Below, piece by piece: positions 2,671 through 22,278 of a stretch of DNA of 41,539 nt. Location of the stretch: positions 1 through 41,539 of the forward strand of contig CALAQA010000103.1 in the NCBI GenBank assembly GCA_937889065.1, read 5' to 3'. Numbering within the stretch: position 1 is the stretch's first letter; each line of letters starts with the position of its first letter. Origin of the DNA: an uncultured Alistipes sp. GTDB taxonomy: Bacteria > Bacteroidota > Bacteroidia > Bacteroidales > Rikenellaceae. Under the pieces are notes generated by a model, which was not told where the DNA came from, did no database searches, and saw only the letters and a program-made list of their open reading frames with translations. The position numbers and the translations under genes were made by a program.

Positions 2671-2704
2671 AAAAAAAAGAGGGCCTCTCGATTGAGAGAC
2701 CCTC
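2671..2704 (-). terminator. Intrinsic terminator ending capsule unit 2 (after ompA)
   Basis: Minus strand GAGGGTCTCTCAATCGAGAGGCCCTC followed by T8. Confidence 0.85.
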
Positions 2705-2733
2705 CGCAAAACCGCCCCAAAGGGCTCGGTTTA

Positions 2734-3933
2734 TTACTTGTGGATTTCGTAGGTACCGTCGTGCGACTCACCCATAATCACAGCACGGCTCAGTCGAGGA
2801 TCGTCGTAGAACATATTGTCCACACCACCCTTCGATACGATGCGCAGCTGCTCCTCGTTTACACCATACTCCTCGGTGAGGCACTGGTAAACGGCCTTGG
2901 CACGGGCTGCCGACAGCTCCTCGTTGATGCGCTTCGAACCGGTACCCTCGTCAGCATAACCGGCGATGGTGAAGGTTACGTTGGGCTTGTCCGAATCCTT
3001 GATAGCCTTGGCTACCAGACCCAGCGTTACACGACCCTCGTTCGACAGATCGGCCTTACCAATCTCGAAGAGAACGAGTACGGGAGCGATCACCGACGAG
3101 GTCTCAACCTCCTTGATCACCTTCTCAACCACGGGGGCATCCTTCAGCGCCTGGTTCTCGGCACGCAGGGCCTCGAGCTGCTTCTGCAAGGCATCGGCCT
3201 CGGCACGGTTGTTACGGATCACAGTCTTCTCACGATCCCAACCACGCTTCTTGAACTTGTACGAGAAGCCGAACGTGGCGGTCCAAAGACCCTCCTCCTT
3301 ACGGCCACCCTCGTCACCGTCGAACGAGTCCTTTACCATCGTCGTGCGCAGGTCGATGTTGAAATCGAACTTGTCACTCAGACGAATGGCATTGAAGATA
3401 CCGAAGTTGAGGCTTACCTCACGAGCGCGGGGGCTCTCCCAGGTAGCCATCCAGCCCAGACCCAGGTAGGGCGAGCAGTTCCAGGTGCGATCGGCCTTGT
3501 AACCCAGCAGGATGCTCGACATATTGAACAGCACATCAGCGTGGATGTTGTAGAAGTCGAACTGCTGTTCCCACAAGGCATGCTCGGGAACAATGTACTC
3601 ATCTGCTGACACTCGGTGTGCCGAGCCGTGGGTAGCACCCTTAATCGAGAGACCGCTAATCATAGCACGCACACCGATCTGGGGGCTGAACCACTTACCG
3701 AAACCGGCATCCAGAGCCAACGACAGACGGTCACCGAAGTCCATCTGCTTGTTGTGGTCACCGTAGTAAACCTGTGCACCACCACCGATCTGTACAAACC
3801 AGTTGTCCCAGAAATGGTTGGTAACAACCTTATGCTTGTCGGTGCTGTAAACCACCTCCTCCTCGGCGGGAGCCTGAGCGAAGGCGAAGCCGGCCATCAA
3901 AACGAAGGCCAAAAACAAGGCTAATTTCTTCAT
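2734..3933 (-). CDS. OmpA-family outer membrane protein (N-terminal beta-barrel, coiled linker, C-terminal peptidoglycan-binding domain)
   Basis: Real start MKKLALFLAFVLMAGFAFA (signal peptide) at 3933; NHFWDNWF..GG, GKWFSP barrel motifs; VLFEIGKADL, IAGYADEGTGS..N..LS..RA, SRAVI OmpA-C motifs. Confidence 0.92.
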   Translation of the reverse strand: MKKLALFLAFVLMAGFAFAQAPAEEEVVYSTDKHKVVTNHFWDNWFVQIGGGAQVYYGDHNKQMDFGDRLSLALDAGFGKWFSPQIGVRAMISGLSIKGATHGSAHRVSADEYIVPEHALWEQQFDFYNIHADVLFNMSSILLGYKADRTWNCSPYLGLGWMATWESPRAREVSLNFGIFNAIRLSDKFDFNIDLRTTMVKDSFDGDEGGRKEEGLWTATFGFSYKFKKRGWDREKTVIRNNRAEADALQKQLEALRAENQALKDAPVVEKVIKEVETSSVIAPVLVLFEIGKADLSNEGRVTLGLVAKAIKDSDKPNVTFTIAGYADEGTGSKRINEELSAARAKAVYQCLTEEYGVNEEQLRIVSKGGVDNMFYDDPRLSRAVIMGESHDGTYEIHK

Positions 3934-3961: not shown

Positions 3962-6385
3962 TTATTTGTTTGTCTTGCTCTTTTTCGATTTGCCATAGCC
4001 GTAACCATAACTGTAGCCATAGCCATAGCCATAGCCATAACCGTATCCGTAACCATAGCCGTAACCGTAGCCATAACCACGACGGTGCAACTCCGAGCCA
4101 TTGACCACAAGGGCCATATTGTTGAGTTTCTTCTCCTGATAGAGGTCCTCCAACTCGGGCAGCTGACGCTTGTCGAGCTTGCCGGCACGCACCACGAAGA
4201 GGGTCAAATCGGCAATACGGTTCGAGATGGCACCATCGGCAATGATACCGATAGGCACGTTATCGGCCACGATGTAGTCGTAGCTCTTGCGCAGGTGGGC
4301 AATCATCTGATCCAGACGATCCGACATCAGCAGCTCGGCAGGGTTCGGGGCAATCGTACCTGCGGGGATGATGTCCAACCCGTTCTCGTCGTGACGAATC
4401 AGCTCATCGACCGTGATGCTCTCGTCTGCAAGGTAGTTCGTCAGACCCTTGTTGTGGTGACCCAGGTGAGCCGACAGCGTACCCTTACGAATATCCATAT
4501 CGACCACAATCACCCGCTTGCCTGCCTGCAAGAGGCTCATAGCCAGGTTCGAGGCGATGAAGGTCTTACCTGCACTCTCGTTGAACGACGTTAGGGTCAG
4601 CACGTGGCTGCGATGGCCTTCGGCACTCGAAGCACCGCTCTGCACACCACCCAGCAACTTAAAGCGCATATTGGTACGCAGGATACGGAAGGCCTCCGAA
4701 ATAACACCCTCTTTGTCGGTACAGATGGCCAGACCCTGACGGCTCTTTTGGGCCTTCAACACCTCCTTATCGAGGGGAATCTCACCCAGAATGGGTACCG
4801 AAACGGCCGCCTTGATCTCCTTCTTACTGTGCACTCGGGTATCGAGGAACATCACCAAGAGGAAATAGACGCCCGGAATGGCCAGACCCAACAGGAAGCC
4901 CAAAAGCAGAATGCGGTTGCGCGAGGGGGCAATGGGCGACGACGAGCCGCTGGCATCGTCGATAATCTGTGCATTGTTATCGGCCATCGCCTGCGAGAGG
5001 GCATTCTCCTCACGGCGGTTCAAAAGGAAGAGGTAGAGGCTCTCCTTAATCTTCTGCTGACGCTCGATGGAGAGCATATCACGCTCCTTGCGGGGAATCG
5101 ACTGCACACGAGCACGGGCACGACGCTCACGACCCTCGGTATCGGCAATTTTGGCCTCGAGGTTGGCAATCGTGTTGTCGATGGTGCGGATGATGGTCTG
5201 CTTCATAGCACGCAGCGAGCTGTTCAGCTCCAACACCACGGGGTTGCTGTCGCTGCCATCCTCAACGAGGCGGTCACGACGCAGTTTCATCGTGTTGTAC
5301 TGCGAAATCTGCTGCTCGATACCGGCGGCCGAGATACCCGTATTGGCAGGAATCAGCTCGGTCTCCTTCGAGGGGTCGGTGATGTTCTCACGGATGTAGG
5401 TCGCCAGCTGCAACTGCGCCTCCAACTCGATCAGTGCGCTGCTCTGCTTCGACTTCTCGGTCATATACTCGCCCGTAGCCGACTCGATGCTGATCAGGTC
5501 GTTCGAGCTCTTATACGACAACAGATCCGACTCGACCGTACCCAGCTCACGCTCGATAATAATCAGACGGTTGTTGATAAAGTCGGCCGTGTTGATGGCC
5601 ACCTGATTCTTCTCCTCGATCGACCACTCGTTATAGACGGCGATGAGCGAGTGCAACATATCCTCGGCACGGGTGGGCGACAGGTCCTTGATCGAGAGGG
5701 CCAGAATCGAGGCCTCCTCGGTCTCCTGACGGATGCCCAGGTTGGCCAGGTAGTAGGCCACCGTAGCCCCCATCGTGTTCTTCGTCACACGAATCGGGGT
5801 GTCGGCCCAACGGCTGTTCATAAAGTTGGTCGGCGAAACGACCACATTACCTGCGTAGATGGGAATCGTGTCGCCCAACTTGGCCGCAATGCTCTTCTGC
5901 TCCTCCAGCCCCTCGAAATCCGACAGTTCGACCGTCGTCTTATCCTTCAGGCGGACCGTGAAGGCGACACGGTGGTTCTGCATCTCCTCGGGGAAGGTCA
6001 CCGAGATGGGGGCCGAGGTGTAGAGCTCCTTGTCACGCAGACCGTCGGCGATGGTGTAGCTCACGTCCGAGTGGACACGCTTCACCACCTCACGCATCAG
6101 GTTCTTGGTGCGGAAGCGGTAGATCTCACTGGCCACATTGACCTTGTTGATGAATTGGTCGTAGCGCTCCAGACCACCGGCCGAAGAGGTCTTCTGGGCG
6201 GGGTCTTTGATGAATACCGTAGCCGTGCGGAAATAGACAAAGGGCGAGTCGGCGTACTTATACCACGCCAAACCCACGCACAGTGCTATCGAGAGCAGAA
6301 ACCAGGGCCACTTCGAGAGCAGATAGACAAACAGGTCGGTTACGTTGATCTCGTCCTGCTTGTTTGTTTTGTTGTTCGATTGCAT
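3962..6385 (-). CDS. wzc: Polysaccharide co-polymerase / BY tyrosine kinase
   Basis: Two TM segments around a periplasmic coiled-coil; SEAFRILRTN, Walker A (SAGKT), DMDIRK, PNPAELL and a C-terminal Tyr cluster. Start placed at MQSNNK (6385). Confidence 0.95.
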   Translation of the reverse strand: MQSNNKTNKQDEINVTDLFVYLLSKWPWFLLSIALCVGLAWYKYADSPFVYFRTATVFIKDPAQKTSSAGGLERYDQFINKVNVASEIYRFRTKNLMREVVKRVHSDVSYTIADGLRDKELYTSAPISVTFPEEMQNHRVAFTVRLKDKTTVELSDFEGLEEQKSIAAKLGDTIPIYAGNVVVSPTNFMNSRWADTPIRVTKNTMGATVAYYLANLGIRQETEEASILALSIKDLSPTRAEDMLHSLIAVYNEWSIEEKNQVAINTADFINNRLIIIERELGTVESDLLSYKSSNDLISIESATGEYMTEKSKQSSALIELEAQLQLATYIRENITDPSKETELIPANTGISAAGIEQQISQYNTMKLRRDRLVEDGSDSNPVVLELNSSLRAMKQTIIRTIDNTIANLEAKIADTEGRERRARARVQSIPRKERDMLSIERQQKIKESLYLFLLNRREENALSQAMADNNAQIIDDASGSSSPIAPSRNRILLLGFLLGLAIPGVYFLLVMFLDTRVHSKKEIKAAVSVPILGEIPLDKEVLKAQKSRQGLAICTDKEGVISEAFRILRTNMRFKLLGGVQSGASSAEGHRSHVLTLTSFNESAGKTFIASNLAMSLLQAGKRVIVVDMDIRKGTLSAHLGHHNKGLTNYLADESITVDELIRHDENGLDIIPAGTIAPNPAELLMSDRLDQMIAHLRKSYDYIVADNVPIGIIADGAISNRIADLTLFVVRAGKLDKRQLPELEDLYQEKKLNNMALVVNGSELHRRGYGYGYGYGYGYGYGYGYGYGYSYGYGYGKSKKSKTNK
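3992..4078 (-). repeat. (Gly-Tyr) repeat encoding the Wzc tyrosine cluster: (GY)11-SY-(GY)2-G, 14 Tyr
   Basis: Direct translation; mixed codons GGT/GGC/GGA and TAT/TAC. Confidence 0.95.
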
Positions 6386-6417
6386 CGTTATTGTTTCGTT
6401 TCTTCTTTTTTCAGCAA

Positions 6418-7206
6418 TTAGTTGCGGTCGATGTACCACAAAATCGAGGCGGCAGCCGTAGCAAACGACAACACCAGCGTCACATACTGCAGTACACTAT
6501 CCTCCTTGTCCTTCTTGCGGTACTTCGGCACGACATACACCACGTCGTTCTGCTCGAGGTAGAAGGCGGGCGAGTTGAAGATCTCCTTCGAACGCAAATC
6601 GTGCGTGAAGACCTGACGCTCGGCACCCTTCTCACGAATCACCAACACCTGATCCACACGGGCATTGGCACCCAAATCACCCGCCTTGGCCAACGCCTCG
6701 AGGAGCGTGATGCGGTCACCCTCCACCGAATAGACACCGGCACCCGAAGCACCCAGCACCGAGTACTTGAAGTTGAGGAACTCGACCGACACCTGCGGGT
6801 CGTTGATGTAGCCGCCATCGATGATGCGGTTGCGAATCAACTCCGACAGCTGACTCACGGTCAGCCCCTCCACCTGTAACTTACCCAAGATCGGGAAGAC
6901 GATGTTGCCATCCACATCCACACGGTAGCCCTTGTCCGAGACACCGCCACGGGTGGCATCCACACTGCCATCGGCCGAAACCGAAACCAATCCACTCGGA
7001 TTGTTGAACGGCAGGGCCAACTCGGGGCTTTTGCAGGTCACGGTAATGCTCAATCGGTCGTCGCGGTGTACCGTAGCCTCGTGCTTGATGTTAAATTGCT
7101 CTTTCTCACCAACCTTAAGATCCTGCAAATATACGAACTTCTTTGACGAAGCACAAGAAGTCAGCAGGAAAACTGACAGGCAAAACAGTAAAATTTTGTT
7201 ATTCAT
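6418..7206 (-). CDS. wza: Polysaccharide export outer-membrane lipoprotein
   Basis: Lipobox LLTSC; DRLSITV, GYRVDVDGNIVFPILG, ITLLEALAKAGDL, YLEQNDVVYV; adjacent to wzc. Confidence 0.93.
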   Translation of the reverse strand: MNNKILLFCLSVFLLTSCASSKKFVYLQDLKVGEKEQFNIKHEATVHRDDRLSITVTCKSPELALPFNNPSGLVSVSADGSVDATRGGVSDKGYRVDVDGNIVFPILGKLQVEGLTVSQLSELIRNRIIDGGYINDPQVSVEFLNFKYSVLGASGAGVYSVEGDRITLLEALAKAGDLGANARVDQVLVIREKGAERQVFTHDLRSKEIFNSPAFYLEQNDVVYVVPKYRKKDKEDSVLQYVTLVLSFATAAASILWYIDRN

Positions 7207-7230: not shown

Positions 7231-8139
7231 TTATTTCTCGTTTTTCAGCCCCGCAAGGCAGCATCGGGCGGCCTCCGCATCGGGTCGGCAGACCAGTTCG
7301 CCCACAGGGGTTTGTTGGCTGATTTGAATCAACAAATCGCACAGCGACTCATAGCAGGCAGTCTCTTGGCGAACGACCGATGCGCCGGGCAGCAGGGCCA
7401 CAAAGGCCTCCAAATCGTTCAATCGCCGAAAGCGATTCTCCGCCCCTTGACGCAGTCGGACAATCCCCCGAGCCGAAACACCCAAATTCTTGTAGCAGTG
7501 GGTCTTTCCGCTCCAAGGCGTACCGTACACCTTCACGTCGTCGCCCTCCAAACGCAGGGTCGGATTGTCGTCATTGAGCAACTCCGCCCCAAACGCCTCG
7601 CCCCAAAGTCGGGCATGGGTACTTTTGCCCGTGCCGCTGCTTCCCAAAAAGAGGTAGCCCGCTTGTTCGAGCATCACCGTCGAGGCGTGCATCGAGACCC
7701 CGCGATGGGCAATCACCGCCACCGAATAGAGGACTCGAATGAGCGACGTAACCGCCTCACGCAGGCGCACATCCCCCCAATCGATGATCGCTTGGGCGTG
7801 GCTGAAATCCGCACTCATCCACATCCGATGCAGTCGGTTCGAGGGGTCAAACGAGGTCTCCACCAAAAAGCCCTCCGTGGCTCGCCACAAGCGCAGGTGG
7901 CCCATATCGTTGTTGTCCTCCTCCAACAGCTCCCCCTTCAACGCCCGCTCCTCGGAGAGGCTATCCACCGCCTCGAAGCGGAAAATCGGGGTTTCTTCGG
8001 CCTCAATCGACCCTTCAAAGGGGCGAAAACTCGGCAGAATCGCATCTACCCGCTCGGCCCAACTGTTCGGGAGCATCAGCTCAAACGGCAGCCCCGCCAC
8101 CCGATAACAAAGGCGTTTTAGGCCCGCAGTTGCCCCCAT
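7231..8139 (-). CDS. HPr-kinase/PEPCK-fold P-loop kinase-like protein (similar in motif layout to lasso-peptide kinases)
   Basis: MHAS, Walker A LFLGSSGTGKST, LLNDD, VYGTPWSGK. Start uncertain (ATG 8139 or 8160). Confidence 0.8.
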   Translation of the reverse strand: MGATAGLKRLCYRVAGLPFELMLPNSWAERVDAILPSFRPFEGSIEAEETPIFRFEAVDSLSEERALKGELLEEDNNDMGHLRLWRATEGFLVETSFDPSNRLHRMWMSADFSHAQAIIDWGDVRLREAVTSLIRVLYSVAVIAHRGVSMHASTVMLEQAGYLFLGSSGTGKSTHARLWGEAFGAELLNDDNPTLRLEGDDVKVYGTPWSGKTHCYKNLGVSARGIVRLRQGAENRFRRLNDLEAFVALLPGASVVRQETACYESLCDLLIQISQQTPVGELVCRPDAEAARCCLAGLKNEK

Positions 8140-9227
8140 AGAAGTTGCCAAATGGTACATACAGCCTCGCCGGGCACATAGCCGAGCGAGAATCGGCTGT
8201 TACGACAAAAAGCCTTAAAGGTATGCCACTTACGATGGATAATGCTGGCCGTCGGGGGGAGGTGATCCTTGGCGTGCTTGCCAAAGTTGCCTCCACGAAA
8301 AACAATCTCGGCCAACGGCTCGGCATCTACGCCTCCACGCTCCTTGTAGGGCAGGTATTGCTCCTCCAAGCCCATCTTCTGACATAGGAAGGCGTGCAGC
8401 AGGGAGCTCCAACGCTCCAGCCCCGCCTTATTATATAAGGTACGTATCTTCTCGCCATCCACCTTGCCACTGAGGCGGTAGTAGGCACGTGCCATATCAC
8501 AAATCTGACGCAATCCGATGCCCAGGCCGATGGCGTGCTTCATAATGTGGGCATTCAGCAACAGCATATTTACCTCGGCCGACGGCACTCGCACCGCCTC
8601 GCTCGGAATCTCGGGCAGGGTCACCGGCTCGGCCTCCATTCCATCCACCACCCCGGCGATGTAGCCCTTCGTGAAGGGGCTTTGCAGGTCGATGAGTTCT
8701 CGGTGGTGCTCCACCTCAATCGACTCCCAGCGATAGACCAAACTGCCATCGGGGGCCGTGCGACACGACTTGCCAAGGCTGCGGGCAATCTCGGCCGCCT
8801 TGTCGGCCTCCCCCTCGCCCAAAAAGCAGAGGTCAATATCGCCGCAGGTGCGCAGCAGCGGCTGCTCGTACATCGTGGCTACCCCCTGCCCCTTTTGCAG
8901 GATGGGATTCAGCCCGTGGCTGCGGTAGATCTGCAACAGCTCGACCAACGTACGGTTGCTCTCGTAGTTGCGCTCCTCGATGCGACCCACCTCGGCCACC
9001 CAGCGGAACAGCAACTCCTCGGGCGGAAAGAAGGGGTGCGGCAGGTAGTCCAGACCTCGGTAGGTGATGCCCACCACCGTCTGCATCGTGGCCAGGGCGA
9101 AGAGTTCGGACCACTCCTCCTCGGTGAGCGGGAAGAGCTCCTCGAAGGGCTCACGACGCTCCCACAATCCCGAGCGAAGCAACATCAAAAGGGCCGAATA
9201 GGCCTTGCCGTACTTCTTGACTGCCAT
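8118..9227 (-). CDS. Uncharacterised nucleotidyltransferase (NTP_transf_5-like)
   Basis: PILQKGQG..Y..P.LR.CGDIDL, VEHH and H...GIGLRQICD motifs typical of this family. Confidence 0.85.
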   Translation of the reverse strand: MAVKKYGKAYSALLMLLRSGLWERREPFEELFPLTEEEWSELFALATMQTVVGITYRGLDYLPHPFFPPEELLFRWVAEVGRIEERNYESNRTLVELLQIYRSHGLNPILQKGQGVATMYEQPLLRTCGDIDLCFLGEGEADKAAEIARSLGKSCRTAPDGSLVYRWESIEVEHHRELIDLQSPFTKGYIAGVVDGMEAEPVTLPEIPSEAVRVPSAEVNMLLLNAHIMKHAIGLGIGLRQICDMARAYYRLSGKVDGEKIRTLYNKAGLERWSSLLHAFLCQKMGLEEQYLPYKERGGVDAEPLAEIVFRGGNFGKHAKDHLPPTASIIHRKWHTFKAFCRNSRFSLGYVPGEAVCTIWQLLWGQLRA

Positions 9228-9228
9228 C

Positions 9229-9498
9229 TTACTCCTTAATCAATCCGTATTCACGCCACGTGGCCAACAGCGCCTCCGCATCGGCTTGAGCCGTAGCGAG
9301 GTCAATCTCGTAGCGACTCGTGAGGAACTCGGCCACCTGTGCAGCATCTACCTCACGCTCGCCCACAAACTCCCACACGGCAGCCGCCGTTTCGTTGAGC
9401 TGATAGACATTCGTCATTCGAGCCTCACCGGTCACACCATCGACCACCATATACATACGGCCGATTTTGCGCAGCTTGAGTCGGGGTACACGTCGCAT
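9229..9498 (-). CDS. Stand-alone PqqD-family protein / RiPP recognition element (RRE)
   Basis: 89 aa; three beta-strand N-terminus, then YQLNETAAAVWEFV...VAEFLTSRYEID...AQADAEALLATW...GLI, the classic PqqD-family pattern. Confidence 0.88.
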   Translation of the reverse strand: MRRVPRLKLRKIGRMYMVVDGVTGEARMTNVYQLNETAAAVWEFVGEREVDAAQVAEFLTSRYEIDLATAQADAEALLATWREYGLIKE

Positions 9499-9522: not shown

Positions 9523-10158
9523 CTAAAATTTCTTACCCGTCAGAATCGAGAGTGCCGTCAGGGTGATAATCTTCATATCGAGCCAGAACGAACACTTCTC
9601 CAGGTACTCCAAATCCATACGCAGACGCTCCAACATCTTCTCCATCGTATCGGTATAGCCGTTGTAGAGGGTCGCCATCGAGAAGAGACCCGGACGCATC
9701 GCATAGAGGCGTGCATAGTCGGGGTTGTGCTCCATAATCTGGTCGATAAAGACCTGACGCTCGGGACGATAACCCACAAACGACATATCGCCCTTCAAGA
9801 CATTCCACAACTGCGGAAGCTCGTCGATGTGGTGGTCGCGAATGAAACGTCCGACACGGGTCAGACGGTCGTCACCCGAATGGTAGAGCTGTGCGCCGTC
9901 ACGCTCGGCCTCCACAATCATCGAGCGAAACTTGTAGAGCGTGAAGGGTTTGCCTTTGTAGCCGATGCGCTCCTGCTTGAAGATGGCCGGGCCGCCATCC
10001 TCCAATTTGATGCAGATCCAAATAATGAGCATCAGCCACGACCAAACCAAAAGGCCGATGAGCGAACAAACAATATCGAAAGTGCGTTTGCAAAGACGTG
10101 CCCACCAGGGCATCGGATGAGCCGCTACGGGGTGAGCGCTGTTAGTCATTGTTTGCAT
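9523..10158 (-). CDS. Priming (initiating) sugar-phosphate transferase, Bac_transf family
   Basis: KRTFDI..S, one TM, FKQERIG..G.PF...KFRSM, DDRLTRVGRFIR..IDELPQLWNVLKGDMSFVG.RP. Start uncertain (10149-10191). Confidence 0.93.
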   Translation of the reverse strand: MQTMTNSAHPVAAHPMPWWARLCKRTFDIVCSLIGLLVWSWLMLIIWICIKLEDGGPAIFKQERIGYKGKPFTLYKFRSMIVEAERDGAQLYHSGDDRLTRVGRFIRDHHIDELPQLWNVLKGDMSFVGYRPERQVFIDQIMEHNPDYARLYAMRPGLFSMATLYNGYTDTMEKMLERLRMDLEYLEKCSFWLDMKIITLTALSILTGKKF

Positions 10159-11281
10159 TGGTTTCAGTATAGAGTTTAAGCGTAGTATCAATCATACGGT
10201 CGAGGGTAAACATCCGCTCGTAGCGTTTGCGGGCCCCCTCGGCATAGCGTTCGTAGATCATCGGATGGGCCGTGATGGCCTTAATGGCCTCGGCCAACCG
10301 CTTGGCATCGCCCGACTTGGCATTCAAGCCGCTCTCGCCATCCCGATTGACCCAGTGTACACCCGACCCCTGAATGGTGGTAGCCACCACCGGTTTGGCG
10401 TGGGCCATCGCCTCAATCTGCACGATGCCGAAGGCCTCGGTTTTGAATACCGAGCTGAGGCAGAACAGATCGCAGGCATCGTAGTAGCAGCAGACCTCCT
10501 CGCCCGAGATAAAGCCTAGCAGACGTACTCGTTCCTGCAGGCCCAACTCGTCGATGCGCTGCTGCAACTGCTCACGCAAGGGGCCCGAGCCACCAATCAG
10601 CACCACAAAATCATCGCCCAGCCATTGGGCCGACTCGACCAGGTGTTCGTAGCCCTTGTAGGAGACCAAACGACCCAGCGAGAAGACGATCTTCTTGCCC
10701 GGGAACTGCTCACGGATGTAGGCGCCGCACCCCTGTGTCGTCTGCGGATCCTCGATACCGATGGGGATGCAGCGGGTCTTCGCCTGCACATCCACCAGGT
10801 AGGGCGACTCCTTCAGGTAGAGGGGCGTCGTACCCACAATGGTCTCGGCACGACGGATGAGCCAACGCTGCAAGGGCTTGTAGAGCTTCAAGAGAAACTT
10901 CTGCTTGAGAATGTCGCTGTGCCAATGCAGAATCACACGCCCCTTGTAGCCCGCCAGGAAGAGCGCCAGACAGGCCATCGGGTCGGGATGGTGGATGTGG
11001 ATGATGTCGTAGTTGCGGCAAATGCGGCGCAAGCGGAAAATCATCACGGGCGAGAGCATCGTAGCCGCCGCCTTTACCACGGCGTGGCAACAGATGAGGT
11101 TGGCGTTTTCGTTGATCTTCACCACCTCGCTACGCCCCTCCACGGCACACAACATATCGCACTTCACCCCACGCTGCGACAGACCCAGCATCAGGTCATA
11201 CATCACCTTCTCCACGCCACCGCGGATGGGGTAAAATTTTCCAACTTGAAGTACACTCAATGTCGATGATTTCTGATTCAT
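10142..11281 (-). CDS. GT4 (GT-B) glycosyltransferase
   Basis: GKFYP.RGGVE, HIHHPDP, LGRLVSYKG, EAFGIVQIEAMA (EX7E). Likely start MNQKSS at 11281. Confidence 0.92.
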   Translation of the reverse strand: MNQKSSTLSVLQVGKFYPIRGGVEKVMYDLMLGLSQRGVKCDMLCAVEGRSEVVKINENANLICCHAVVKAAATMLSPVMIFRLRRICRNYDIIHIHHPDPMACLALFLAGYKGRVILHWHSDILKQKFLLKLYKPLQRWLIRRAETIVGTTPLYLKESPYLVDVQAKTRCIPIGIEDPQTTQGCGAYIREQFPGKKIVFSLGRLVSYKGYEHLVESAQWLGDDFVVLIGGSGPLREQLQQRIDELGLQERVRLLGFISGEEVCCYYDACDLFCLSSVFKTEAFGIVQIEAMAHAKPVVATTIQGSGVHWVNRDGESGLNAKSGDAKRLAEAIKAITAHPMIYERYAEGARKRYERMFTLDRMIDTTLKLYTETNANND

Positions 11282-11374
11282 TCGGCCTGCTTTGATGCTA
11301 TTCTCGGCTCGCACACACGCCTACGCGAGCCACTTTGGCGAACATTTTTCGGCATCCGACCCACCCGACAGCAC

Positions 11375-11425
11375 ATAATATCGGGGCTTTGACAACCACA
11401 CAAAACAGTGATTCCCAATCAATTA
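11375..11425 (-). repeat. Leader element copy A (direct repeat of 22821-22871)
   Basis: 39/51 identical in an ungapped alignment to copy B (manual count); contains the palindrome TGATT-N3-AATCA. Confidence 0.75.
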
Positions 11426-11488
11426 TCCCAACCCGTAAATCAGCAACCCATCACAAACGGCCGCTTTTAGGCAGGTGGATACACTTTG

Positions 11489-11519
11489 CAAATATACGAC
11501 TTTTAGTAGAAAGTTGAAA
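11489..11519 (-). promoter_or_regulatory. Bacteroidota sigma-A-type promoter for capsule unit 2
   Basis: -7 box TATATTTG (11496-11489, consensus TAnnTTTG); TTTC 19 nt upstream as a near-consensus -33 box. Confidence 0.65.
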
Positions 11520-11613
11520 CAAAACGGACCTTTTTTTGCTATTTTTTTTCATCGCTCCACAGCGCTGATTTTAAGCCACCTTCCCGCCCCCATCTCACCT
11601 ACCCGACCACCTC

Positions 11614-11650
11614 AAAAAACCACCCGCCCGAATCTCGGACAGGTGGTTTT
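11614..11650 (-). terminator. Intrinsic terminator ending capsule unit 1
   Basis: AAAACCACCTGTCCGA-gat-TCGGGCGGGTGGTTTTTT on the minus strand, just after the GT4 stop at 11679. Confidence 0.85.
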
Positions 11651-11678
11651 GTATGAATCTAAAAAACGGAGTGCTCGC

Positions 11679-12782
11679 CTACGCCAACAAGGCGGCAAAC
11701 AACTCGTACCAATCTGTGGCCACGGGAGCTGCGATACGAGCGGGCGGCACAGGGTGAAAGGAGGAATAATCCTTCTGGATGACATTCCGCATCTCCTCTG
11801 CGAGTGTTTGCGGACATTCGGGATCGAAAAAAGCGACCTCATCACTGCCTGCCGCAGTTTCGTGTGCATAAGGTAAATCCGCCAACAACATTGGCTTCCT
11901 ATAGGCAGCAAACTCGGATATGGGCAACCCCCAAGTCTCCACTCGAGAGGGAAAAATCAAACAATCGCTCACCGCATAATAATGAGCCAACTGCTCTTTG
12001 CTCAAAAAGCCGACAAATTTAATGTTTTCACAACTTCCCCATTTGTTGTAGAGCCATTTAGCATAGCGGTTTTCGTCCCCCTTCAGCGTGATCGCCACCT
12101 CGAACTGAGACGCATCAGCCTCCTCTGCCAACATCTCTGCTGCTCGACAAACAGCCTCAAAATTTTTATGACAATCGGGAGTGGCAGCAAAGAAAAAGCG
12201 GACTTTGCCATCCTCAACCCGAACAGCACTTATGGGTGCAATCTTCGCTTTTTGAGGAGGAGCTACAATAAACCGACTCTCCTCAACACCAAACATTTGC
12301 GAGAAACCGCGACGGAGCCATTCGGCTTGAACTATTAAGTATTTGTTGCGATGGATATTGATGCGATATGCAAAACGTGTAAAAAGTGCAAAAAGTACGA
12401 TTTTGGGATCGAATAGAAAATCTCGCCATCGCCACTTCAGGAAAGGAAATGAAGTTTGACAATAGACGGCCTGACGCTTTGCTGTAACACGTGGCGTGGT
12501 ATCGTGCATCGACAACCACAAATCAATCGACGGAAACCGCTTTGACACCTGTTTCATCGTGACGTACTCACACCACAAACGTCTCCCCCATCCTTTGATG
12601 GTATGAGGCATCTCGATGTACTCTATGTTGGGATAATCGCACAACGAACGTTTATGCACCAAAGCAACAATGTGCCAACCTTGCAGCTGAGCTTGCGTGG
12701 ATAAATAGTCCAAGCAACTTCGCAAAATGGTCAATGTGCCACCTTTACGGATATTCACAGCAGACAAAACAATTGTTTTCAT
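11679..12782 (-). CDS. GT4 glycosyltransferase
   Basis: GGTLTIL, HKNFE, FPSRVETWGLPISEF, DLPYAHE. Confidence 0.9.
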   Translation of the reverse strand: MKTIVLSAVNIRKGGTLTILRSCLDYLSTQAQLQGWHIVALVHKRSLCDYPNIEYIEMPHTIKGWGRRLWCEYVTMKQVSKRFPSIDLWLSMHDTTPRVTAKRQAVYCQTSFPFLKWRWRDFLFDPKIVLFALFTRFAYRINIHRNKYLIVQAEWLRRGFSQMFGVEESRFIVAPPQKAKIAPISAVRVEDGKVRFFFAATPDCHKNFEAVCRAAEMLAEEADASQFEVAITLKGDENRYAKWLYNKWGSCENIKFVGFLSKEQLAHYYAVSDCLIFPSRVETWGLPISEFAAYRKPMLLADLPYAHETAAGSDEVAFFDPECPQTLAEEMRNVIQKDYSSFHPVPPARIAAPVATDWYELFAALLA

Positions 12783-13921
12783 CGTTTGGACAACGTGTTA
12801 AACAGTTCCATCCAACAATTCATAATGCGTTGCTCATCGAAACGAGCCGAGGACCGAATGGCGACAGTCCCCATTTGACGACGTAGTTCGGGAGATTCTA
12901 TAAGCTTTATAAGGCCATCAGCCAACCCTTGGATATTTCCCTCCTCAACCAAAAAACCGTCCACACCGGAACTTACCACATCTGACGGACCGCATTTGCA
13001 ACGGAACGACACGATTGGCAATCCAAAAGCCTGTGCCTCCAACAAGACCATCGGCAACCCTTCATAGCGGGACGACATGATATATATAGAGGCTGCTGTA
13101 TAGATCGACTCCATATCGCTTGTCGGGGGTACCAAATGAATCTTTTGTTCCAATCCAAGCGTACGAGTTTGAGCCTGCAACGCCTCTTTAAGTTCGCCCC
13201 CTCCAACAATATCCAAATCCCACTCGGGATGACGTTCAGCCACCATATTCCAAGCAGCTATCAATCGATCAAATCCCTTTTGGTGAGAATATCGACCGAT
13301 GGAGACAACCCGCCTTTCCCCCAACGAGGCATACTTCTTCGGGGTAAATGTACGAGCATTAGGGATCACCATTATATTGGGCAGATTACCCCAATAACCA
13401 CGATCCTCTTCGGTCAATACCACAAATTTATCGTAACGCTGCACCAATCGCTCGTCATTGCGGGTGCGCCATCTATCCACCAAACCCCACAACCCTGTTC
13501 GTGCATATTGCAGTCGCTTGAATTTAGAAAAATGAATCTCCAACACCTTCTTGCTACCGTCTCGAATTCCCGCCAAAAACGAAGCTTCGTTGCAATACAT
13601 TGAAATCGTTATATCCGGTTTTTCTTCAAGTAACACCTTCCTTAAACGCCGACGATGTGCGTATTGCTTATAGGGATATTTTACGAGTTTATTGAAGAAC
13701 GATTTGCCGTTGTTTTCCTCATAATTAACAGCCAAGTCAATGCAGCGAATTCGGCTATCAAGTGCAAAGAACGGAGCTGCACCACGCTGATCAGTGGTCA
13801 CAATCACCACCTCATATCCGTGTTGAACCAAATAGTTGGCCTTATTGGCCAATACCCGCTCCATTCCTCCGGAATTATACGTTCCGGCTATGCAATAAAG
13901 GATTTTCACGATTCGGGACAC
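12779..13921 (-). CDS. GT4 glycosyltransferase
   Basis: GGMERV, IGRYSHQKGFD, SSRYEGLPMVLLEAQA. Confidence 0.92.
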   Translation of the reverse strand: MSRIVKILYCIAGTYNSGGMERVLANKANYLVQHGYEVVIVTTDQRGAAPFFALDSRIRCIDLAVNYEENNGKSFFNKLVKYPYKQYAHRRRLRKVLLEEKPDITISMYCNEASFLAGIRDGSKKVLEIHFSKFKRLQYARTGLWGLVDRWRTRNDERLVQRYDKFVVLTEEDRGYWGNLPNIMVIPNARTFTPKKYASLGERRVVSIGRYSHQKGFDRLIAAWNMVAERHPEWDLDIVGGGELKEALQAQTRTLGLEQKIHLVPPTSDMESIYTAASIYIMSSRYEGLPMVLLEAQAFGLPIVSFRCKCGPSDVVSSGVDGFLVEEGNIQGLADGLIKLIESPELRRQMGTVAIRSSARFDEQRIMNCWMELFNTLSKR

Positions 13922-15198
13922 ATCAATGGATCCTCTTCCGGTCGAACTCTGTCAAGCACCAAAAAGAGCGCAAAGACCAAAAAGATATCGGTTGAAACCT
14001 TAAACCACACCGTAAAATTGACGGCCAGAAAGAGCCAGAACAACGTTGCAAGATGTGGATTTTTTTGCATACATATACGGCCGGCCTTCCATATAAAAGC
14101 CATCATCGCTAACAAACCCGGAATACCCGAATAGAAGATAAAACGCAGGTAGCCAATATCTGTTTGCATATAATACCCGTGGAAACTGGGGCCAGTATAA
14201 TACGGATCAATCCCGGTGGGGTTAATCATATACCCATCACCAATCCACCATGTCTTTGCATTATCAGGAAAGACCACCATGTTTCTTAAAATTTCGTTTG
14301 AACGAACCTCCCATTCACCTGTCTCCGCTAACGAAAAGAAGCCCTCAAAGGCAAAGCGCAGGTTGTCATGCACCTGTTCGTTATTATTATAGAACCATAC
14401 GACTATGGGGACAACAACCAATAATGCAACCACACCCCATAGCGCCACGCGCCACACCGAGCGATTGAAAGATAAACGATGCAGCCCCAATGCAAAGATG
14501 ATATAGGCAATAGCCAGAACGATTCCAACAGTCGTTGTACGTGCAATCATATTTCCCACCACGGCAATTATGAAGAACGCAAGGATATAACATACGACAT
14601 ATTTTCTGCGTGGCGTTTCCATCAATTGAGTACATAGGTATGCTATCACCACCAAAGCCACGGCGAAACGAGATCCCGCAGGATCAAGATGGGCGCCTAC
14701 GCCATGTAATCTTTCTTGCAACCAAACCTCCTGCATTCCTACCACCGTAGAATGGACTAAAAGACGAAACGGCACATAAAAATCCACCAAAATAGCCGAT
14801 ACACACTGGAACACACACACGGCAATCAGGTAGTTGCATACTAGCTCAACAGAGATATATCCGTGTATCTTTCGCATATACATTACCGCCAGATAGGCTG
14901 CACTCAACCAAACCCACATCGAGATAATGTACGAAACATAGGTATAATCTCGTGTCTCATTCAACGTGACGGCCACAAAACTGGTAAAGGAGACCACCAA
15001 AGCATACATCGAGATGGTCACTGCGTCCTTACTAAAGATCGAGTTTCTCGCTTTTCCCAACTGAAAACCCAAGACCACCAAACCAATACCGGCCATTGCC
15101 ATCTTGGTATTCACGCCCGGCAGGAAGGTGAATTCAAAGGGGAAAAAGTAAAAACTCGTAATGATTACACCTATCGCAATCTGTATATATTTCAGCAT
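13906..15198 (-). CDS. wzy: Probable polysaccharide polymerase (multi-TM)
   Basis: About 10-11 hydrophobic segments, ARTT and TDIGYLR..FY.G..G; position among GTs in a wzx/wzc locus. Confidence 0.7.
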   Translation of the reverse strand: MLKYIQIAIGVIITSFYFFPFEFTFLPGVNTKMAMAGIGLVVLGFQLGKARNSIFSKDAVTISMYALVVSFTSFVAVTLNETRDYTYVSYIISMWVWLSAAYLAVMYMRKIHGYISVELVCNYLIAVCVFQCVSAILVDFYVPFRLLVHSTVVGMQEVWLQERLHGVGAHLDPAGSRFAVALVVIAYLCTQLMETPRRKYVVCYILAFFIIAVVGNMIARTTTVGIVLAIAYIIFALGLHRLSFNRSVWRVALWGVVALLVVVPIVVWFYNNNEQVHDNLRFAFEGFFSLAETGEWEVRSNEILRNMVVFPDNAKTWWIGDGYMINPTGIDPYYTGPSFHGYYMQTDIGYLRFIFYSGIPGLLAMMAFIWKAGRICMQKNPHLATLFWLFLAVNFTVWFKVSTDIFLVFALFLVLDRVRPEEDPLMCPES

Positions 15199-15199
15199 T

Positions 15200-16180
15200 T
15201 TAACGATATATTATGCCATAAATAAACTTATAAACCACCTTGTAGTAGAGCCACACCGCCCAGAACTGTTGTTTTGCAGCCAGCCATTGCAGCATCTTGG
15301 TACGCCACGGCAACGTTGCGGCACTCCAGATATAGCGATTCGACTCCGGATACCACTCCGTCCAGCGGCGATAATCCGAACGTTTGTCACTGATAATAAA
15401 GGGCAGCTTCACGCTCAACTGGAAGCGTGCAATCGGCGCCTCCATTGCAGCACCAAACCGTGCTCGAAGGAAGGTCACCGTCTCATCTACGTTGCAACGA
15501 ATATCGACCAAATGACGCTCCGAGAAGGTTTGCGTCAGCGCCGACATATTCAGACGCACATAGTGATAATAGGCCTTGGGGATATAGGCAACTAGCTTGG
15601 CGCACGCCAACAACCGTATCATCGTCATATCCTCGCCCATGCTGTGGCCCGCAGGGAAGCGAACGGCGTTTTCGGCGTAGAGCGATCGTCGCACCAACTT
15701 ATTCCATACGTTGTATTTCATCGCCCCATCCAGCACACCATTCAACGCCTCCTCGGCTGTGGCATAACTGCGAACCTTCATATAACGCTCGTTTTGCTCG
15801 AACGAAAGAAAAAAATCGCTCCAAAGATAGTCCGCGCCTTGTTGCTTGGCCGCCTCGTACATCTCGGCCAACATTTCGCGCTCCACATAGTCATCGCTAT
15901 CGCAGTGGAAGATATACTCACCCTGCGCCACCTCCAAACCGGTGTTGCGGGCAGCCGGGAGACCCTTGTTTTGCTCGTGAGTCAGGATGCGCACCTGATT
16001 TGCCCGTTCGGGATAATCGGCCAACGTGCGCTGCAAAATGGCAATACTTTGGTCGGGCGAAGCATCATCCACAAAGATATACTCCACCTCGTCGAGCGTC
16101 TGCTCCATCAACGACCGCACGCACCGCTCGATGAAACCCTCAACCTTGTAAATAGGAACTATGACGGAGACTTTCATCAT
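15200..16180 (-). CDS. GT2 glycosyltransferase
   Basis: VSVIVPIY, FVDDASPD, GLPAARNTG, CDSDD, GED. Confidence 0.93.
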   Translation of the reverse strand: MMKVSVIVPIYKVEGFIERCVRSLMEQTLDEVEYIFVDDASPDQSIAILQRTLADYPERANQVRILTHEQNKGLPAARNTGLEVAQGEYIFHCDSDDYVEREMLAEMYEAAKQQGADYLWSDFFLSFEQNERYMKVRSYATAEEALNGVLDGAMKYNVWNKLVRRSLYAENAVRFPAGHSMGEDMTMIRLLACAKLVAYIPKAYYHYVRLNMSALTQTFSERHLVDIRCNVDETVTFLRARFGAAMEAPIARFQLSVKLPFIISDKRSDYRRWTEWYPESNRYIWSAATLPWRTKMLQWLAAKQQFWAVWLYYKVVYKFIYGIIYR

Positions 16181-17157
16181 CTAAAACAAAATTTCACAAC
16201 AGCAGTCTCTTTGTTGCGAATGACCAGATATGCAGTTGCAAACGAAAGTGCAACCGTAGCAACAAACATCCAATAGGGATGCAGACCCGGGTAAAGTATT
16301 GTTAACAACCCAACCCACAACATATGCACAAAATAGACTATCGTACTAGTGAGTCTGAAGTTTTTATAAAGGTTGTCTTGTCTGGGCTTGATATCAAATT
16401 GAAGCACTAGTGAAAACAACGCATATATCACCACAAACGTTGCAAGTTTAACACCTAGCATGTGAACTATAAAGCTTGCAATCAATAATAACCACAATAT
16501 ATTCTTGTTACACACTCCGTGAGATGCTATCGCCACACCTATCATAATATACGGCAATCCTTCAAAAAAACCATTTCGAGTCGTTTGAAACAACCTATAG
16601 TATATATTGAAATAGCCGATATCGTGCATTTGATTAATCACAACACCGATAAGTGCAAAAAGTGCAGCGATAACATACATCGTTCTTGCCTTAAAATCCA
16701 AGCGGACCATTAAGTAAATTATAACTCCTGCCACCAACATTCCTAGCAAATACCATAATGGCCATGACCAAAAATTTTGACCGACAAGAAGGATATTTCT
16801 ACAATAGACAAGAAATGCTTTAGGAAATGACAATCCATCAAGCCAAAAGCCATATATAGCATACGGGAGATATATCAGCGTCCACACGATGTACAGTCTT
16901 AACGTCTTGGACAACCATTTCCTTAAACGCGATAGCTTTTCTTGCTTGGTTGCGTTCCATATTTTATACCATACCAAAAAACCAGACGCAGCAAAAAAGA
17001 AAGGGACCTTGATAGCTAAAGCATTGGTCAACATTTCTCTCCACTCACTTGAAGATATAACGGCAAACAAATTAGTATGTGTGGCTACCACCAAAACAGC
17101 CATACATACTTTAATAAGATCTATGTTATTAAAATTTGACCGTGAAATCCTAAGCAT
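16177..17157 (-). CDS. Acyltransferase family 3 (membrane O-acetyltransferase)
   Basis: NIDLIK..MAVLVV..H, VPFFF..SGF, LWYL, IVYFVH; multi-TM. ATG at 17157 (TTG at 17163 is an alternative). Confidence 0.85.
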   Translation of the reverse strand: MLRISRSNFNNIDLIKVCMAVLVVATHTNLFAVISSSEWREMLTNALAIKVPFFFAASGFLVWYKIWNATKQEKLSRLRKWLSKTLRLYIVWTLIYLPYAIYGFWLDGLSFPKAFLVYCRNILLVGQNFWSWPLWYLLGMLVAGVIIYLMVRLDFKARTMYVIAALFALIGVVINQMHDIGYFNIYYRLFQTTRNGFFEGLPYIMIGVAIASHGVCNKNILWLLLIASFIVHMLGVKLATFVVIYALFSLVLQFDIKPRQDNLYKNFRLTSTIVYFVHMLWVGLLTILYPGLHPYWMFVATVALSFATAYLVIRNKETAVVKFCFR

Positions 17158-17166
17158 CCGCAACCG

Positions 17167-17904
17167 TTATTTACGTATTTTACTCACAAAACAACCCAGT
17201 CTCAGTAAAATTTTCTTCACAAGAGCATTCCAATATGCAGGAATTAGCATCTTGATAGGCATCTTTGTTCTGTTTTCACCGAACGTTTCCTGTTTTATTG
17301 TACTTGAAAATGACTCAATATTCGCATCTATAACATACGGGAAAATTGCCTTAAGTTCTATTCCTTGAGCTCTATATAAAGACCAATGATCAGCAACACA
17401 CGACGGAGGAGTATTCAATTTTATTATGAGTCGCGCTGCTGCGCGATTTATCAAATATGCATAAGCGCCAACAGCATCAAACACATTTGTGACACAAACT
17501 CCATTAACATTTTTTTTACGATACCACCAATAGTCGCCACTAAGAAAAAGGATGATGGGGTCTTCCGAATTTAATAGATTTGCACATTGGGGTAATACAG
17601 ACATTTCGCCCACAATCGTTATATCATCCTCCAATATCAGTACATACGGTTCATTAGATTTCAGGAGATTCTGGTAGCACTTATAATGACTCAGCGTACA
17701 TCCTATTTCTCCAAGATTCAACACTCTCCCATAACGCTTATACGATAGCGTCCGATCGAATTGATCTTCAATTTGTGTATCCGTAAGAGCTTTACCGTAC
17801 ACAGCATCGACAAATTCGTAATCTAAATCATACTTCTTACAAATTTGAGCCATATGGGCGCGACGCTCCGCGTCTTTCTTCAGATTGATAATCCAGGTCT
17901 TCAT
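17167..17904 (-). CDS. GT25 glycosyltransferase
   Basis: IINLKK...RR..M, FVDAVYG, GEIGCTLSH, LILEDD, AYLIN..AA. Confidence 0.9.
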   Translation of the reverse strand: MKTWIINLKKDAERRAHMAQICKKYDLDYEFVDAVYGKALTDTQIEDQFDRTLSYKRYGRVLNLGEIGCTLSHYKCYQNLLKSNEPYVLILEDDITIVGEMSVLPQCANLLNSEDPIILFLSGDYWWYRKKNVNGVCVTNVFDAVGAYAYLINRAAARLIIKLNTPPSCVADHWSLYRAQGIELKAIFPYVIDANIESFSSTIKQETFGENRTKMPIKMLIPAYWNALVKKILLRLGCFVSKIRK

Positions 17905-17908
17905 TATG

Positions 17909-18898
17909 TTATTTATGTACTATTGCATCAACAATCTTTATAATCTTTATTAACGGGGCTGTCCATTTAGACAAAATCAATGTTTGACAAATTTTATCTT
18001 TTATACTGCATAATGGGTTCGACCAAATATATTTATTTGAAGCTGGCTCTACACTTCGATACTTCTCCCATTTTTCAGGAATAAACAACCACCCTCTTTT
18101 TGCTGAAAGCATACGCCAAGCCAATTCTCGTTCAAGTTCAAAATAAGTTTGATTGTCTCTAAAAAAGTTATTTATTTGATTGTAAATATAGATTTGAGAT
18201 TCTGTATTTCTTGCTAATGATTGCGAGGAGTTTGCATTAGAAACTATACTGCTAAGATTACAACGATTGTAATGGTATAGAGGCAACGATAATCGAATAT
18301 ACTTTTGAGCATAATACAGCAGCCTCACGGAAAGGCCATAGTCTTCACAAAAGCTATGGCCTTCATATGCCCTTAGATCATATTTTTCATATAATTCTCT
18401 TGATGCCAATACATTCCATAGAACATTCCAGCCATAGGTCATATAACACTTCATTAATTCCACTTTATCAATCATGGAATCTACAGTTGAATACTTGAGT
18501 TGTTGATTGGGGAGTTCCATATAAAAATCGCAAACCACGTAGTCGCTATTATTTGTGATAGCAGCATTATACAGCTTTTCATACATATCCTTCTCAACCC
18601 AATCATCACTATCGCAATGTACTATAAAATCACCGGAAGCAATACTAATACCCGTATTTCTTGCTGCGGGAATACCTTTATTCTCATCGTGAACTACAAT
18701 ACGACTGTGACTTGCTCGCTCTGGATACTCCGTCATAATTCGCTTGACAATGGAGATACTATCATCGGGAGATGCATCATCCACAAAGATATATTCGATT
18801 TCTTGTAGCGTCTGCTCGAAAAGTGAACGCACACATCGCTCCACATAGGTAGCAACATTATATATGGGGACGATAACCGAGACTTTACTTTTGCCCAT
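17909..18898 (-). CDS. GT2 glycosyltransferase
   Basis: VSVIVPIYN, FVDDASPD, AARNTG, CDSDD, CED. Confidence 0.93.
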   Translation of the reverse strand: MGKSKVSVIVPIYNVATYVERCVRSLFEQTLQEIEYIFVDDASPDDSISIVKRIMTEYPERASHSRIVVHDENKGIPAARNTGISIASGDFIVHCDSDDWVEKDMYEKLYNAAITNNSDYVVCDFYMELPNQQLKYSTVDSMIDKVELMKCYMTYGWNVLWNVLASRELYEKYDLRAYEGHSFCEDYGLSVRLLYYAQKYIRLSLPLYHYNRCNLSSIVSNANSSQSLARNTESQIYIYNQINNFFRDNQTYFELERELAWRMLSAKRGWLFIPEKWEKYRSVEPASNKYIWSNPLCSIKDKICQTLILSKWTAPLIKIIKIVDAIVHK

Positions 18899-20826: not shown

Positions 20827-20834
20827 TTTAGTGT

Positions 20835-22274: not shown

Positions 22275-22278
22275 TGGG

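Follow-up and report, generated by a model that had tools for sequence, protein, structure and literature searches.

A trio of RiPP-type genes separates initiation from export genes in a polysaccharide operon

Contig CALAQA010000103.1 of an uncultured Alistipes sp. (assembly GCA_937889065.1) carries three adjacent genes whose products resemble tailoring enzymes of peptides that are synthesized ribosomally and modified post-translationally (RiPPs). We analyzed positions 1 to 41,539 of this contig, a stretch of 41,539 nucleotides (nt) that is referred to here as the window. The trio occupies positions 7231 to 9498 of the - strand and encodes a PqqD-family RiPP recognition element (RRE) of 89 amino acids (aa; 9229..9498, PF05402), a nucleotidyltransferase (NTase) of the NTP_transf_5 family (369 aa, 8118..9227, PF14907) and a P-loop kinase of the ScmC family with the HPrK/PEPCK fold (309 aa, 7231..8160). 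The kinase was assigned on the basis of a structure model and of PF27840 in its relatives, an alignment of which favors the ATG at 8139 as its start.

The trio is part of a series of eight genes that lie head to tail on the - strand and encode, in this order, a GT4 glycosyltransferase, a priming transferase, PqqD, the NTase, the kinase, Wza, Wzc and an OmpA-family protein. The priming enzyme is a short polyprenyl-phosphate sugar-phosphate transferase of the Bac_transf family (222 aa, 9523..10191; PF02397, E 1.3e-63). Downstream of the kinase follow a Wza-like outer-membrane polysaccharide export lipoprotein (262 aa, 6418..7206; Poly_export, E 9.9e-20, and SLBB_2), a Wzc-type chain-length regulator and tyrosine autokinase with a (GY)n tail (825 aa, 3962..6439; GNVR and AAA_31; 135.6 bits for TIGR01007 with a cut-off of 108) and, as the final operon gene, an OmpA-family outer-membrane protein (2734..3933, with the start placed at the signal peptide, 3933; PF00691, E 1.1e-17). 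The genes are closely spaced: 24 nt separate the transferase stop at 9523 from the PqqD start at 9498, 1 nt separates PqqD from the NTase, the NTase and kinase genes overlap by 43 nt (22 nt from the ATG at 8139), and 24 nt lie between the kinase stop at 7231 and the wza start at 7206. The operon ends after ompA, because a G+C-rich hairpin with a 12-bp stem containing seven G-C pairs, followed by a T run, lies directly 3' of the ompA stop (2678..2705, - strand); it is the strongest among 16 terminator-like sites between 1200 and 12000.

A preliminary description of this DNA, made from the sequence alone, had proposed the three family assignments, the coupling of the trio to the initiation and export genes and the absence of lasso-type partner genes from the window. 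The coordinates bear out the spacing and the coupling, PF05402 and PF14907 were matched above their gathering thresholds, and the kinase assignment stands on its fold model and its relatives. Scans with Pfam (39 open reading frames, ORFs) and NCBIfam (33 ORFs) likewise detected no asparagine-synthase-like lasso cyclase, transglutaminase-like (B2) protease, radical SAM enzyme or ABC exporter in the window. What the window does encode is a Poly_export/SLBB protein, a GNVR protein with a P-loop tyrosine kinase and a tyrosine-rich tail, a priming transferase and a flippase, the set that identifies a Wzy-dependent polysaccharide locus; no Wzb-type phosphatase was found among the scanned window ORFs. 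The C-terminus of Wzc (3962-4100, - strand) comprises about 16 G-Y dipeptides with one S-Y interruption and then a lysine-rich end. It is an unusually regular tyrosine cluster and, at the DNA level, a short tandem repeat.

The trio proteins retain conserved catalytic-type residues

We characterized the three proteins by profile searches, alignments of relatives and structure prediction. The PqqD protein scores 55.8 bits against PF05402 (gathering threshold 23.4, E 6e-15) and aligns with 38 relatives. Among solved structures, the lasso RRE TfuB1 (6jx3_B, E 4.2e-6), a protein that binds a lasso leader, is its best relative, and its NCBIfam matches, lasso_PqqD_Strm (33.9 bits) and the HPr-rel-A PqqD model (18.9 bits), are both below cut-off; none of the trio proteins scored above an NCBIfam cut-off.

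The NTase belongs to PF14907 with 130 bits (gathering threshold 31.2, E 1.5e-37). In an alignment of 36 sequences, residues K112, G113, D130, D132, H227, H231, R240 and D244 are invariant; among them are the G113, D130 and D132 of a pol-beta-type G-x(n)-D-x-D metal site. The predicted model has a predicted local distance difference test score (pLDDT) of 94.5. Its fold matches are all weak and of the pol-beta NTase type (MenT1 at 1.5e-3, LnuA, ANT(2'')-Ia), the structures 5cfs and 4xje are among them, and the glycan phospho-alcohol transferase FKRP appears as a very weak match at rank 28. A sequence search against solved structures gave nothing significant for the NTase (best E 0.14) and no match at E<=10 for the kinase.

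In the local Pfam copy, the kinase showed sub-threshold P-loop matches alone (AAA_33, E 6e-5), while its relatives carry precomputed PF27840, named ScmC by the Atlas, and its Atlas neighbors are ScmC-labeled. The kinase model (pLDDT 91.5) matches ATP-dependent PEPCK (E 6e-7) and HPrK/P (1kkm and 1jb1, E about 5e-5). Invariant over 31 sequences are a Walker A motif (G173-T181, G-x-S-G-T-G-K-S-T) and the segments N196-D197-D198-N199-P200 and W216-S217-G218-K219, so the protein has the Walker A motif and following acidic pair of an HPrK/PEPCK-fold P-loop kinase. Because the catalytic-type residues are invariant and the models confident, both the kinase and the NTase look active, as judged from alignment and model.

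Embedding in polysaccharide loci is conserved and confined to one kinase lineage

The kinase has many relatives. Among 8000 candidates that were scored, 6809 matched at E<=1e-3, and in a one-genome-per-species collection at least 596 stretches encode a kinase relative (596 of the 600 matches listed). For the neighborhood analysis we used the best 80 of these at least 596 kinase-matching loci (labeled L001 and so on), selected with a query alignment built from the window's nearest relatives, so that the sample leans to the relatives of the window and its proportions are not those of the whole kinase family. ORFs were called and clustered, cluster representatives were scanned with Pfam and NCBIfam, and families were mapped back onto all loci with custom hidden Markov models (HMMs). 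The 80 loci come nearly all from Bacteroidales, with Pedobacter and Sphingobacterium in addition; the best identity to the window among them is 47%, and the species of the window is not included.

Twenty-four of the 80 loci, which belong to several Bacteroidales families, have the exact order transferase-PqqD-NTase-kinase-Wza-Wzc. More broadly, the kinase gene lies beside both wza and wzc in 34 loci, which we refer to as polysaccharide-linked, and three more are probably of this class. Their gene order is Wzy_C-like, GT4 genes, priming transferase, PqqD, NTase, kinase, Wza and Wzc, followed variably by a peptide gene, a large lipoprotein gene, one or two OmpA genes, a gene for an S26-type signal-peptidase-like protein and an ABC exporter. 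Within this class, PqqD is present in 30 of 34 loci, the NTase in 33, a Wzy_C-like protein in 27 and an OmpA-family gene after wzc in 21. The remaining 43 loci are stand-alone: kinase, S26-like peptidase and PqqD form a compact cassette amid unrelated housekeeping genes, 13 of the loci also have an NTase and 21 an ABC exporter, and none has Wza, Wzc or OmpA. The S26-type assignment of the peptidase-like protein derives from matches to TIGR02228 (archaeal-type signal peptidase I, E 1e-9, below cut-off) and Peptidase_S24 (E 1e-6). An ABC exporter accompanies the fuller relatives.

To these classes we compared a maximum-likelihood tree of 81 kinases, computed with a quick method. One branch, with a support of 95 in the Shimodaira-Hasegawa-like approximate likelihood ratio test, separates 40 rows (35 linked, three probably linked and two not linked) from 41 stand-alone ones; one of the two non-linked rows is a contig that ends at the kinase. 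The polysaccharide-link label was equally clustered in none of 500 shuffles. Because this branch splits linked from stand-alone kinases, the polysaccharide-linked form is one lineage that has been kept with its locus across several families and not a chance insertion. These data agree with the earlier proposal that lasso-type tailoring parts were taken into polysaccharide biology, which predicted the trio in other exopolysaccharide loci. The trio had also been called an orphan; this holds in cis for the 41.5-kb window but is not supported in general, as the relatives contribute an ABC exporter and an S26-type peptidase along with a family of leader-bearing peptides.

Two further observations concern the neighborhoods. 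In both architectures, a large lipoprotein gene often follows the peptide gene or the cassette (L010 14269-16614; L026 15219-17471; L030 6567-9584; L025 16659-19472; L048 14618-16189; L079 11719-13419). It is of two types: one has about 750 aa and no family, and the other ranges in length over about 520-1100 aa and weakly matches FimA/Mfa-like and Lcl_C or Fib_succ_major. The lipoprotein may be a partner or target of the peptide. Moreover, some stand-alone cassettes adjoin TolC-like (OEP) and MacB-like or other efflux genes (L066 11672-17150; L051 3015-7516), which replace or add to the half-size ABC exporter.

A family of YxxP peptides accompanies the related loci

Clustering of small ORFs outside the large genes of the related loci gave one family besides PqqD and its antisense shadow. 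After three rounds of profile search, 26 copies of this peptide were found in 24 of the 80 loci. The peptides are about 25-75 residues long, typically about 60 (examples are L001 14228-14401; L020 14063-14248; L026 15003-15200; L028 14219-14395; L048 14520-14618; L057 12545-12700; and L051 7956-8272, which holds three tandem copies). In linked loci the peptide gene lies just after wzc and ahead of the lipoprotein gene; in stand-alone loci it lies beside the cassette. Where a linked locus extends at least 6 kb beyond wzc, the peptide is present in 14 of 20 cases, and 18 of these 20 loci have one or more of the three parts peptide, peptidase and exporter. Among stand-alone loci, the peptide was found in 5 of 13 with an NTase versus 1 of 30 without (Fisher p 0.007, uncorrected for kinship).

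A profile of the 26 peptides matched 733 cluster representatives at E<=1e-3, 39 of them at E<=1e-10, in a search of 1.84 billion proteins; nearly all are 45-90 aa long. A word-indexed search found 210 of 294 peptide candidates, and the only name that sources give these is "hypothetical protein", with no Pfam domain, while seven peptides compared with Pfam and NCBIfam at E<=10 returned noise only. One match to the peptide profile, the 573-aa protein P0141 from eight stretches, is an unrelated repeat protein and was excluded from the consensus count.

The peptides share a block with the approximate consensus Y-E-A-P-x-T-x4-V-E-L-E-x-G-F-M-x-A-S. Over 266 motif-anchored sequences, Tyr and Pro of the YxxP motif are conserved in 99% and 100%, and the positions that follow are T (81%), V (92%), E (89%), L (77%), E (99%), G (75%), F/I, M/C, A (66%) and S (89%). 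Behind the block extends an acidic tail with a median of 34 residues, 25% Asp plus Glu, no Cys and a penultimate Trp in 57% of sequences; it often ends in W-D/E/N. The three L051 copies terminate at, or one residue past, the conserved Ser.

We also predicted the complex of the L028 PqqD protein with residues 1-35 of the L028 peptide, using a custom alignment for each partner. The prediction was graded as weak support: the score was 0.47 (0.47, 0.51 and 0.47 in the individual runs; best control 0.02), the runs shared at least 85% of their contacts, and the peptide pLDDT was at least 54. Of 157 solved complexes, 116 reach the pass mark used, as do 2 of 215 mismatched pairs; 18 of the 157 and both of these mismatched pairs do so with a score of 0.60 or below. 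As solved RRE-leader complexes exist and may drive this score, it is not counted as evidence.

Comparison with known RiPP and polysaccharide systems

The trio most resembles the B1, K and N components of paeninodin- and pseudomycoidin-type lasso peptide clusters (B1, K, N, D). Lasso leaders carry a YxxP-type motif. Shared with these clusters are a PqqD-type RRE nearest to lasso B1, an HPrK-fold kinase, the YxxP-block peptide and, in the fuller relatives, an ABC exporter. Excerpts of the work on paeninodin describe an HPr-kinase-like enzyme that phosphorylates the C-terminal Ser of the precursor (PMC8498205). For pseudomycoidin, passages of PMC6993621 report that PsmN is required for the addition of one or two hexoses to the phosphate, that PsmN D134A/D136A is inactive and that mutation of PsmK D158/D159 abolished activity; in the same passages, Zyubko et al. 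modeled PsmN on 5cfs and 4xje, ANT(2'')-Ia structures. The window NTase is similar to PsmN in its weak fold likeness to ANT(2'')-Ia, and the invariant catalytic-type residues of the window proteins correspond in kind to PsmK D158/D159 and PsmN D134/D136.

The system also differs from lasso clusters. The trio system lacks a cyclase and a transglutaminase-type B2 protein both in the window and in the related loci examined, where an S26-type serine peptidase-like protein takes the place of B2. Neither Asn_synthase nor transglutaminase domains were detected among the cluster representatives of the related loci or in 97 of 120 unclustered flanking proteins of at least 300 aa, the other 23 being 14 that mostly belong to already annotated clusters and nine longer than 900 aa; the only radical SAM proteins near related loci are MiaB- and RlmN-like housekeeping enzymes. 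The peptide of this system has a long acidic tail and no evident macrolactam-type core, and the trio is embedded in a polysaccharide operon. The combination of cyclase C, B2 peptidase and leader-plus-core precursor that defines a lasso cluster is thus not found in the window, and the relatives' peptide shows no evident lasso core.

Two systems known from NCBIfam models share individual features with the trio. The HPr-rel-A system, known by its model names, likewise pairs an HprK-related kinase (kinase A, TIGR04352) with a PqqD peptide chaperone (TIGR04353), but the window proteins fall below both cut-offs (18.9 versus 35 bits for PqqD, 11.5 versus 200 bits for the kinase), and the best scores among the relatives are 29.6 (L018 PqqD) and 26.6 (L078 kinase). 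No paper on HPr-rel-A was found in the open-access literature. With the SynChlorMet kinase ScmC (TIGR04249; PF27840), the trio has in common the PF27840 annotation of the kinase relatives and the ScmC-labeled Atlas neighbors; it differs in that the kinase reaches only 16.9 bits with TIGR04249 (equivalog cut-off 125) and that the window contains no radical SAM partners.

As a polysaccharide locus, the window corresponds to Wzx/Wzy-type capsule and exopolysaccharide loci such as those for group 1 capsule and colanic acid, with which it shares the priming transferase, glycosyltransferases, Wzx, a Wzy_C-like protein, a Wza-like lipoprotein and a Wzc whose tail is rich in tyrosine. Unlike those loci, it has three RiPP-type genes between initiation and export and an OmpA-family gene, and the operons of its relatives include the peptide, peptidase and ABC exporter. 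No description of this arrangement or of the peptide family was found in a literature search that covered open-access articles and left subscription journals and supplements outside its reach.

Proposed function and alternative explanations

Based on these findings, we favor, with moderate confidence, the reading that the trio forms the tailoring core of a RiPP-like system that is undescribed, has no cyclase, is related to lasso systems, is set in a Wzy-type locus and has the YxxP peptide as its likely substrate. The system is widespread in Bacteroidota and, as far as sequence comparison indicates, related to the phosphorylating and glycosylating branch of lasso clusters. We infer the substrate, the chemistry and the link to polysaccharide assembly, anchoring or regulation by analogy with that branch. 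In our working model, PqqD would bind the YxxP block of the peptide and the kinase would phosphorylate a Ser or Thr, the best candidate being the Ser that closes the block and is conserved in 89% of sequences. The NTase-fold enzyme would then extend this phosphate, as PsmN does in pseudomycoidin, the S26-type peptidase would cleave the peptide, and the ABC exporter would export it. One lineage of this system has become fixed in a conserved Wzy-type polysaccharide locus. Because the trio has a fixed site between initiation and export, and because the NTase is present in 33 of 34 linked loci, a functional tie to the polysaccharide is suggested, which could consist of regulation, anchoring or a peptide-polymer conjugate. 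A specific form of the latter, which we put forward as a long shot, is that the phosphorylated and NTase-extended peptide serves as acceptor, primer or cap for the polymer. The glycosyltransferases and the Wzy_C/ligase-like protein would then build the polymer on the peptide or transfer it there, yielding a RiPP-polysaccharide conjugate exported by Wza-Wzc and common in gut Bacteroidales.

Several observations weigh against the favored reading. The peptide is absent from the window: the profile gave only noise at E<=10 and a six-frame motif scan found nothing. Family HMMs run over the 41.5 kb also detected no S26-like peptidase, ABC exporter or large lipoprotein, and the terminator closes the operon after ompA. 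The window thus holds a reduced copy of the system, the trio without peptide, peptidase and exporter in cis, and it is resembled in this by L006 and L034, the 2 of the 20 well-covered linked loci that lack all three parts. With no peptide encoded within 41.5 kb, the trio must use a peptide encoded elsewhere or another substrate. One genome has both a linked and a stand-alone kinase locus (L013, L059), and another has a linked and a probably linked one (L037, L038); the system can therefore be present in paralogous copies within one genome, so that a reduced locus such as this one could plausibly act in trans. Furthermore, the trio is more constant than the peptide in the linked class, which leaves room for a peptide-independent role. 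The absence of any fold match for the NTase at E<=1e-3, the distance of the kinase from the curated models TIGR04249 and TIGR04352 and the lean of the 80-locus sample count in the same direction.

The most direct peptide-independent role would be one in the polysaccharide pathway, in which the kinase phosphorylates a sugar or lipid-linked repeat, the NTase attaches a phospho-linked substituent and PqqD acts as a scaffold. The fact that 24 of 80 loci place the trio behind the priming transferase and ahead of wza, the enrichment of the NTase in linked loci (33 of 34 versus 13 of 43 stand-alone), the peptide-free window, L006 and L034, and the weak fold matches to LnuA and ANT(2'')-Ia, which modify hydroxyls of small molecules, together with the very weak one to FKRP, would all fit such a role. 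We nevertheless consider it unlikely, because PqqD/RRE is a peptide-binding module whose best solved relative binds a lasso leader, the kinase fold is that of protein or peptide kinases and PEPCK rather than of sugar kinases, the NTase lies outside the sugar-1-phosphate nucleotidylyltransferase family, and a dedicated peptide family accompanies the system and, in stand-alone loci, the NTase. The related suggestion of the preliminary description, a kinase and NTase pair that makes an activated donor, becomes less likely given the peptide family, peptidase and exporter of the relatives. That description had also named the Wzc tail and OmpA as substrates. Modification of Wzc, OmpA or Wza to regulate or anchor export, with no small peptide involved, would account for the tight coupling to wza, wzc and ompA, for the OmpA-family genes co-conserved in 21 of 34 linked loci and for the lack of a peptide in cis. 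We regard this as rather unlikely: no leader-like YxxP block occurs in any frame of the window, the (GY)n tail of Wzc is typical of autophosphorylation, and the 43 stand-alone loci keep kinase and PqqD without Wza, Wzc or OmpA, which implies that the ancestral substrate was not one of those proteins. By analogy, the leader-bearing peptide family makes a small peptide, and hence the YxxP peptide, the more natural and likely substrate.

The absence of the three partner genes from the window and the terminator after ompA could alternatively mean that the trio is an inactive remnant in this genome. This is improbable, since the columns invariant over 31 kinases and 36 NTases are all intact in the window, the frames are full length and translationally coupled, both models are confident, and kinases 91% and 88% identical to that of the window occur in other samples. 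Finally, the resemblance to B1, K and N of paeninodin- and pseudomycoidin-type clusters would be explained if the trio served a complete lasso cluster elsewhere in the genome. We hold this to be very improbable, because the scanned representatives and flanking proteins of related loci contain no asparagine-synthase- or transglutaminase-like protein, and the system comes with a peptide family and a peptidase type of its own.

Gut Bacteroidales need surface polysaccharides to colonize and to cope with phages and their host. In the conserved polysaccharide locus described here, enzymes that tailor peptides are a fixed component. If the preferred reading, with the YxxP peptide as substrate, is correct, the system would represent a new cyclase-less branch of lasso-related RiPP chemistry that produces a phospho-peptide, perhaps a phospho-glyco-peptide, from its own unnamed precursor family of 733 cluster representatives, with a chemistry tied to polysaccharide export. 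Two enzyme families of unassigned function would thereby gain a concrete candidate substrate in a large family found in gut bacteria, to which the window itself contributes only a reduced copy. This includes NTP_transf_5, which has no function in Pfam and for which no characterized member was found in the open-access literature, aside from the PsmN-like case; PF14907 itself appeared there only in an irrelevant passage on phosphonate gene neighborhoods.

Genes flanking the operon

Upstream of the priming transferase lie three GT4 glycosyltransferase genes identified with Pfam (10142-11314, 11679-12782 and 12779-13921, - strand), the order of which is conserved in the relatives. They are followed by the gene for a multi-span membrane protein of 430 aa (13906..15198, - strand), for which Pfam and NCBIfam scans gave no match. 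Its Atlas neighbors are named O-antigen ligase, and one cluster has PF04932 on 98% of its members, which makes Wzy_C/O-antigen-ligase-like a lead for this protein. Further upstream are glycosyltransferases of lower G+C content and the Wzx flippase. The G+C content drops from about 0.57 to 0.37-0.46 over the glycosyltransferase, acyltransferase and flippase genes (11000-25000) and is low again at 23000-25000, suggesting that the conserved export block and the variable genes for sugar building were not acquired together. A CptA/EptA-like phosphoethanolamine transferase gene (23268-25133, + strand) adjoins the polysaccharide locus; its product has a sulfatase domain and reaches 234 bits with PRK10649, below cut-off.

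Directly downstream of the operon terminator lies a gene for an extracytoplasmic function (ECF)-type sigma factor (1861-2445, - strand), and after it a 50-residue acidic ORF without a family (1648-1800, - strand). They could form a regulatory pair for the locus or have nothing to do with it. An Rfam scan of the window gave a tRNA alone (34275-34361). The + strand further carries a SusC/SusD pair with a beta-helix protein, forming a polysaccharide utilization locus (26522-34094), and murG, murC, ftsQ, ftsA and ftsZ (36199-41537), which identify the window as chromosomal Bacteroidota DNA.

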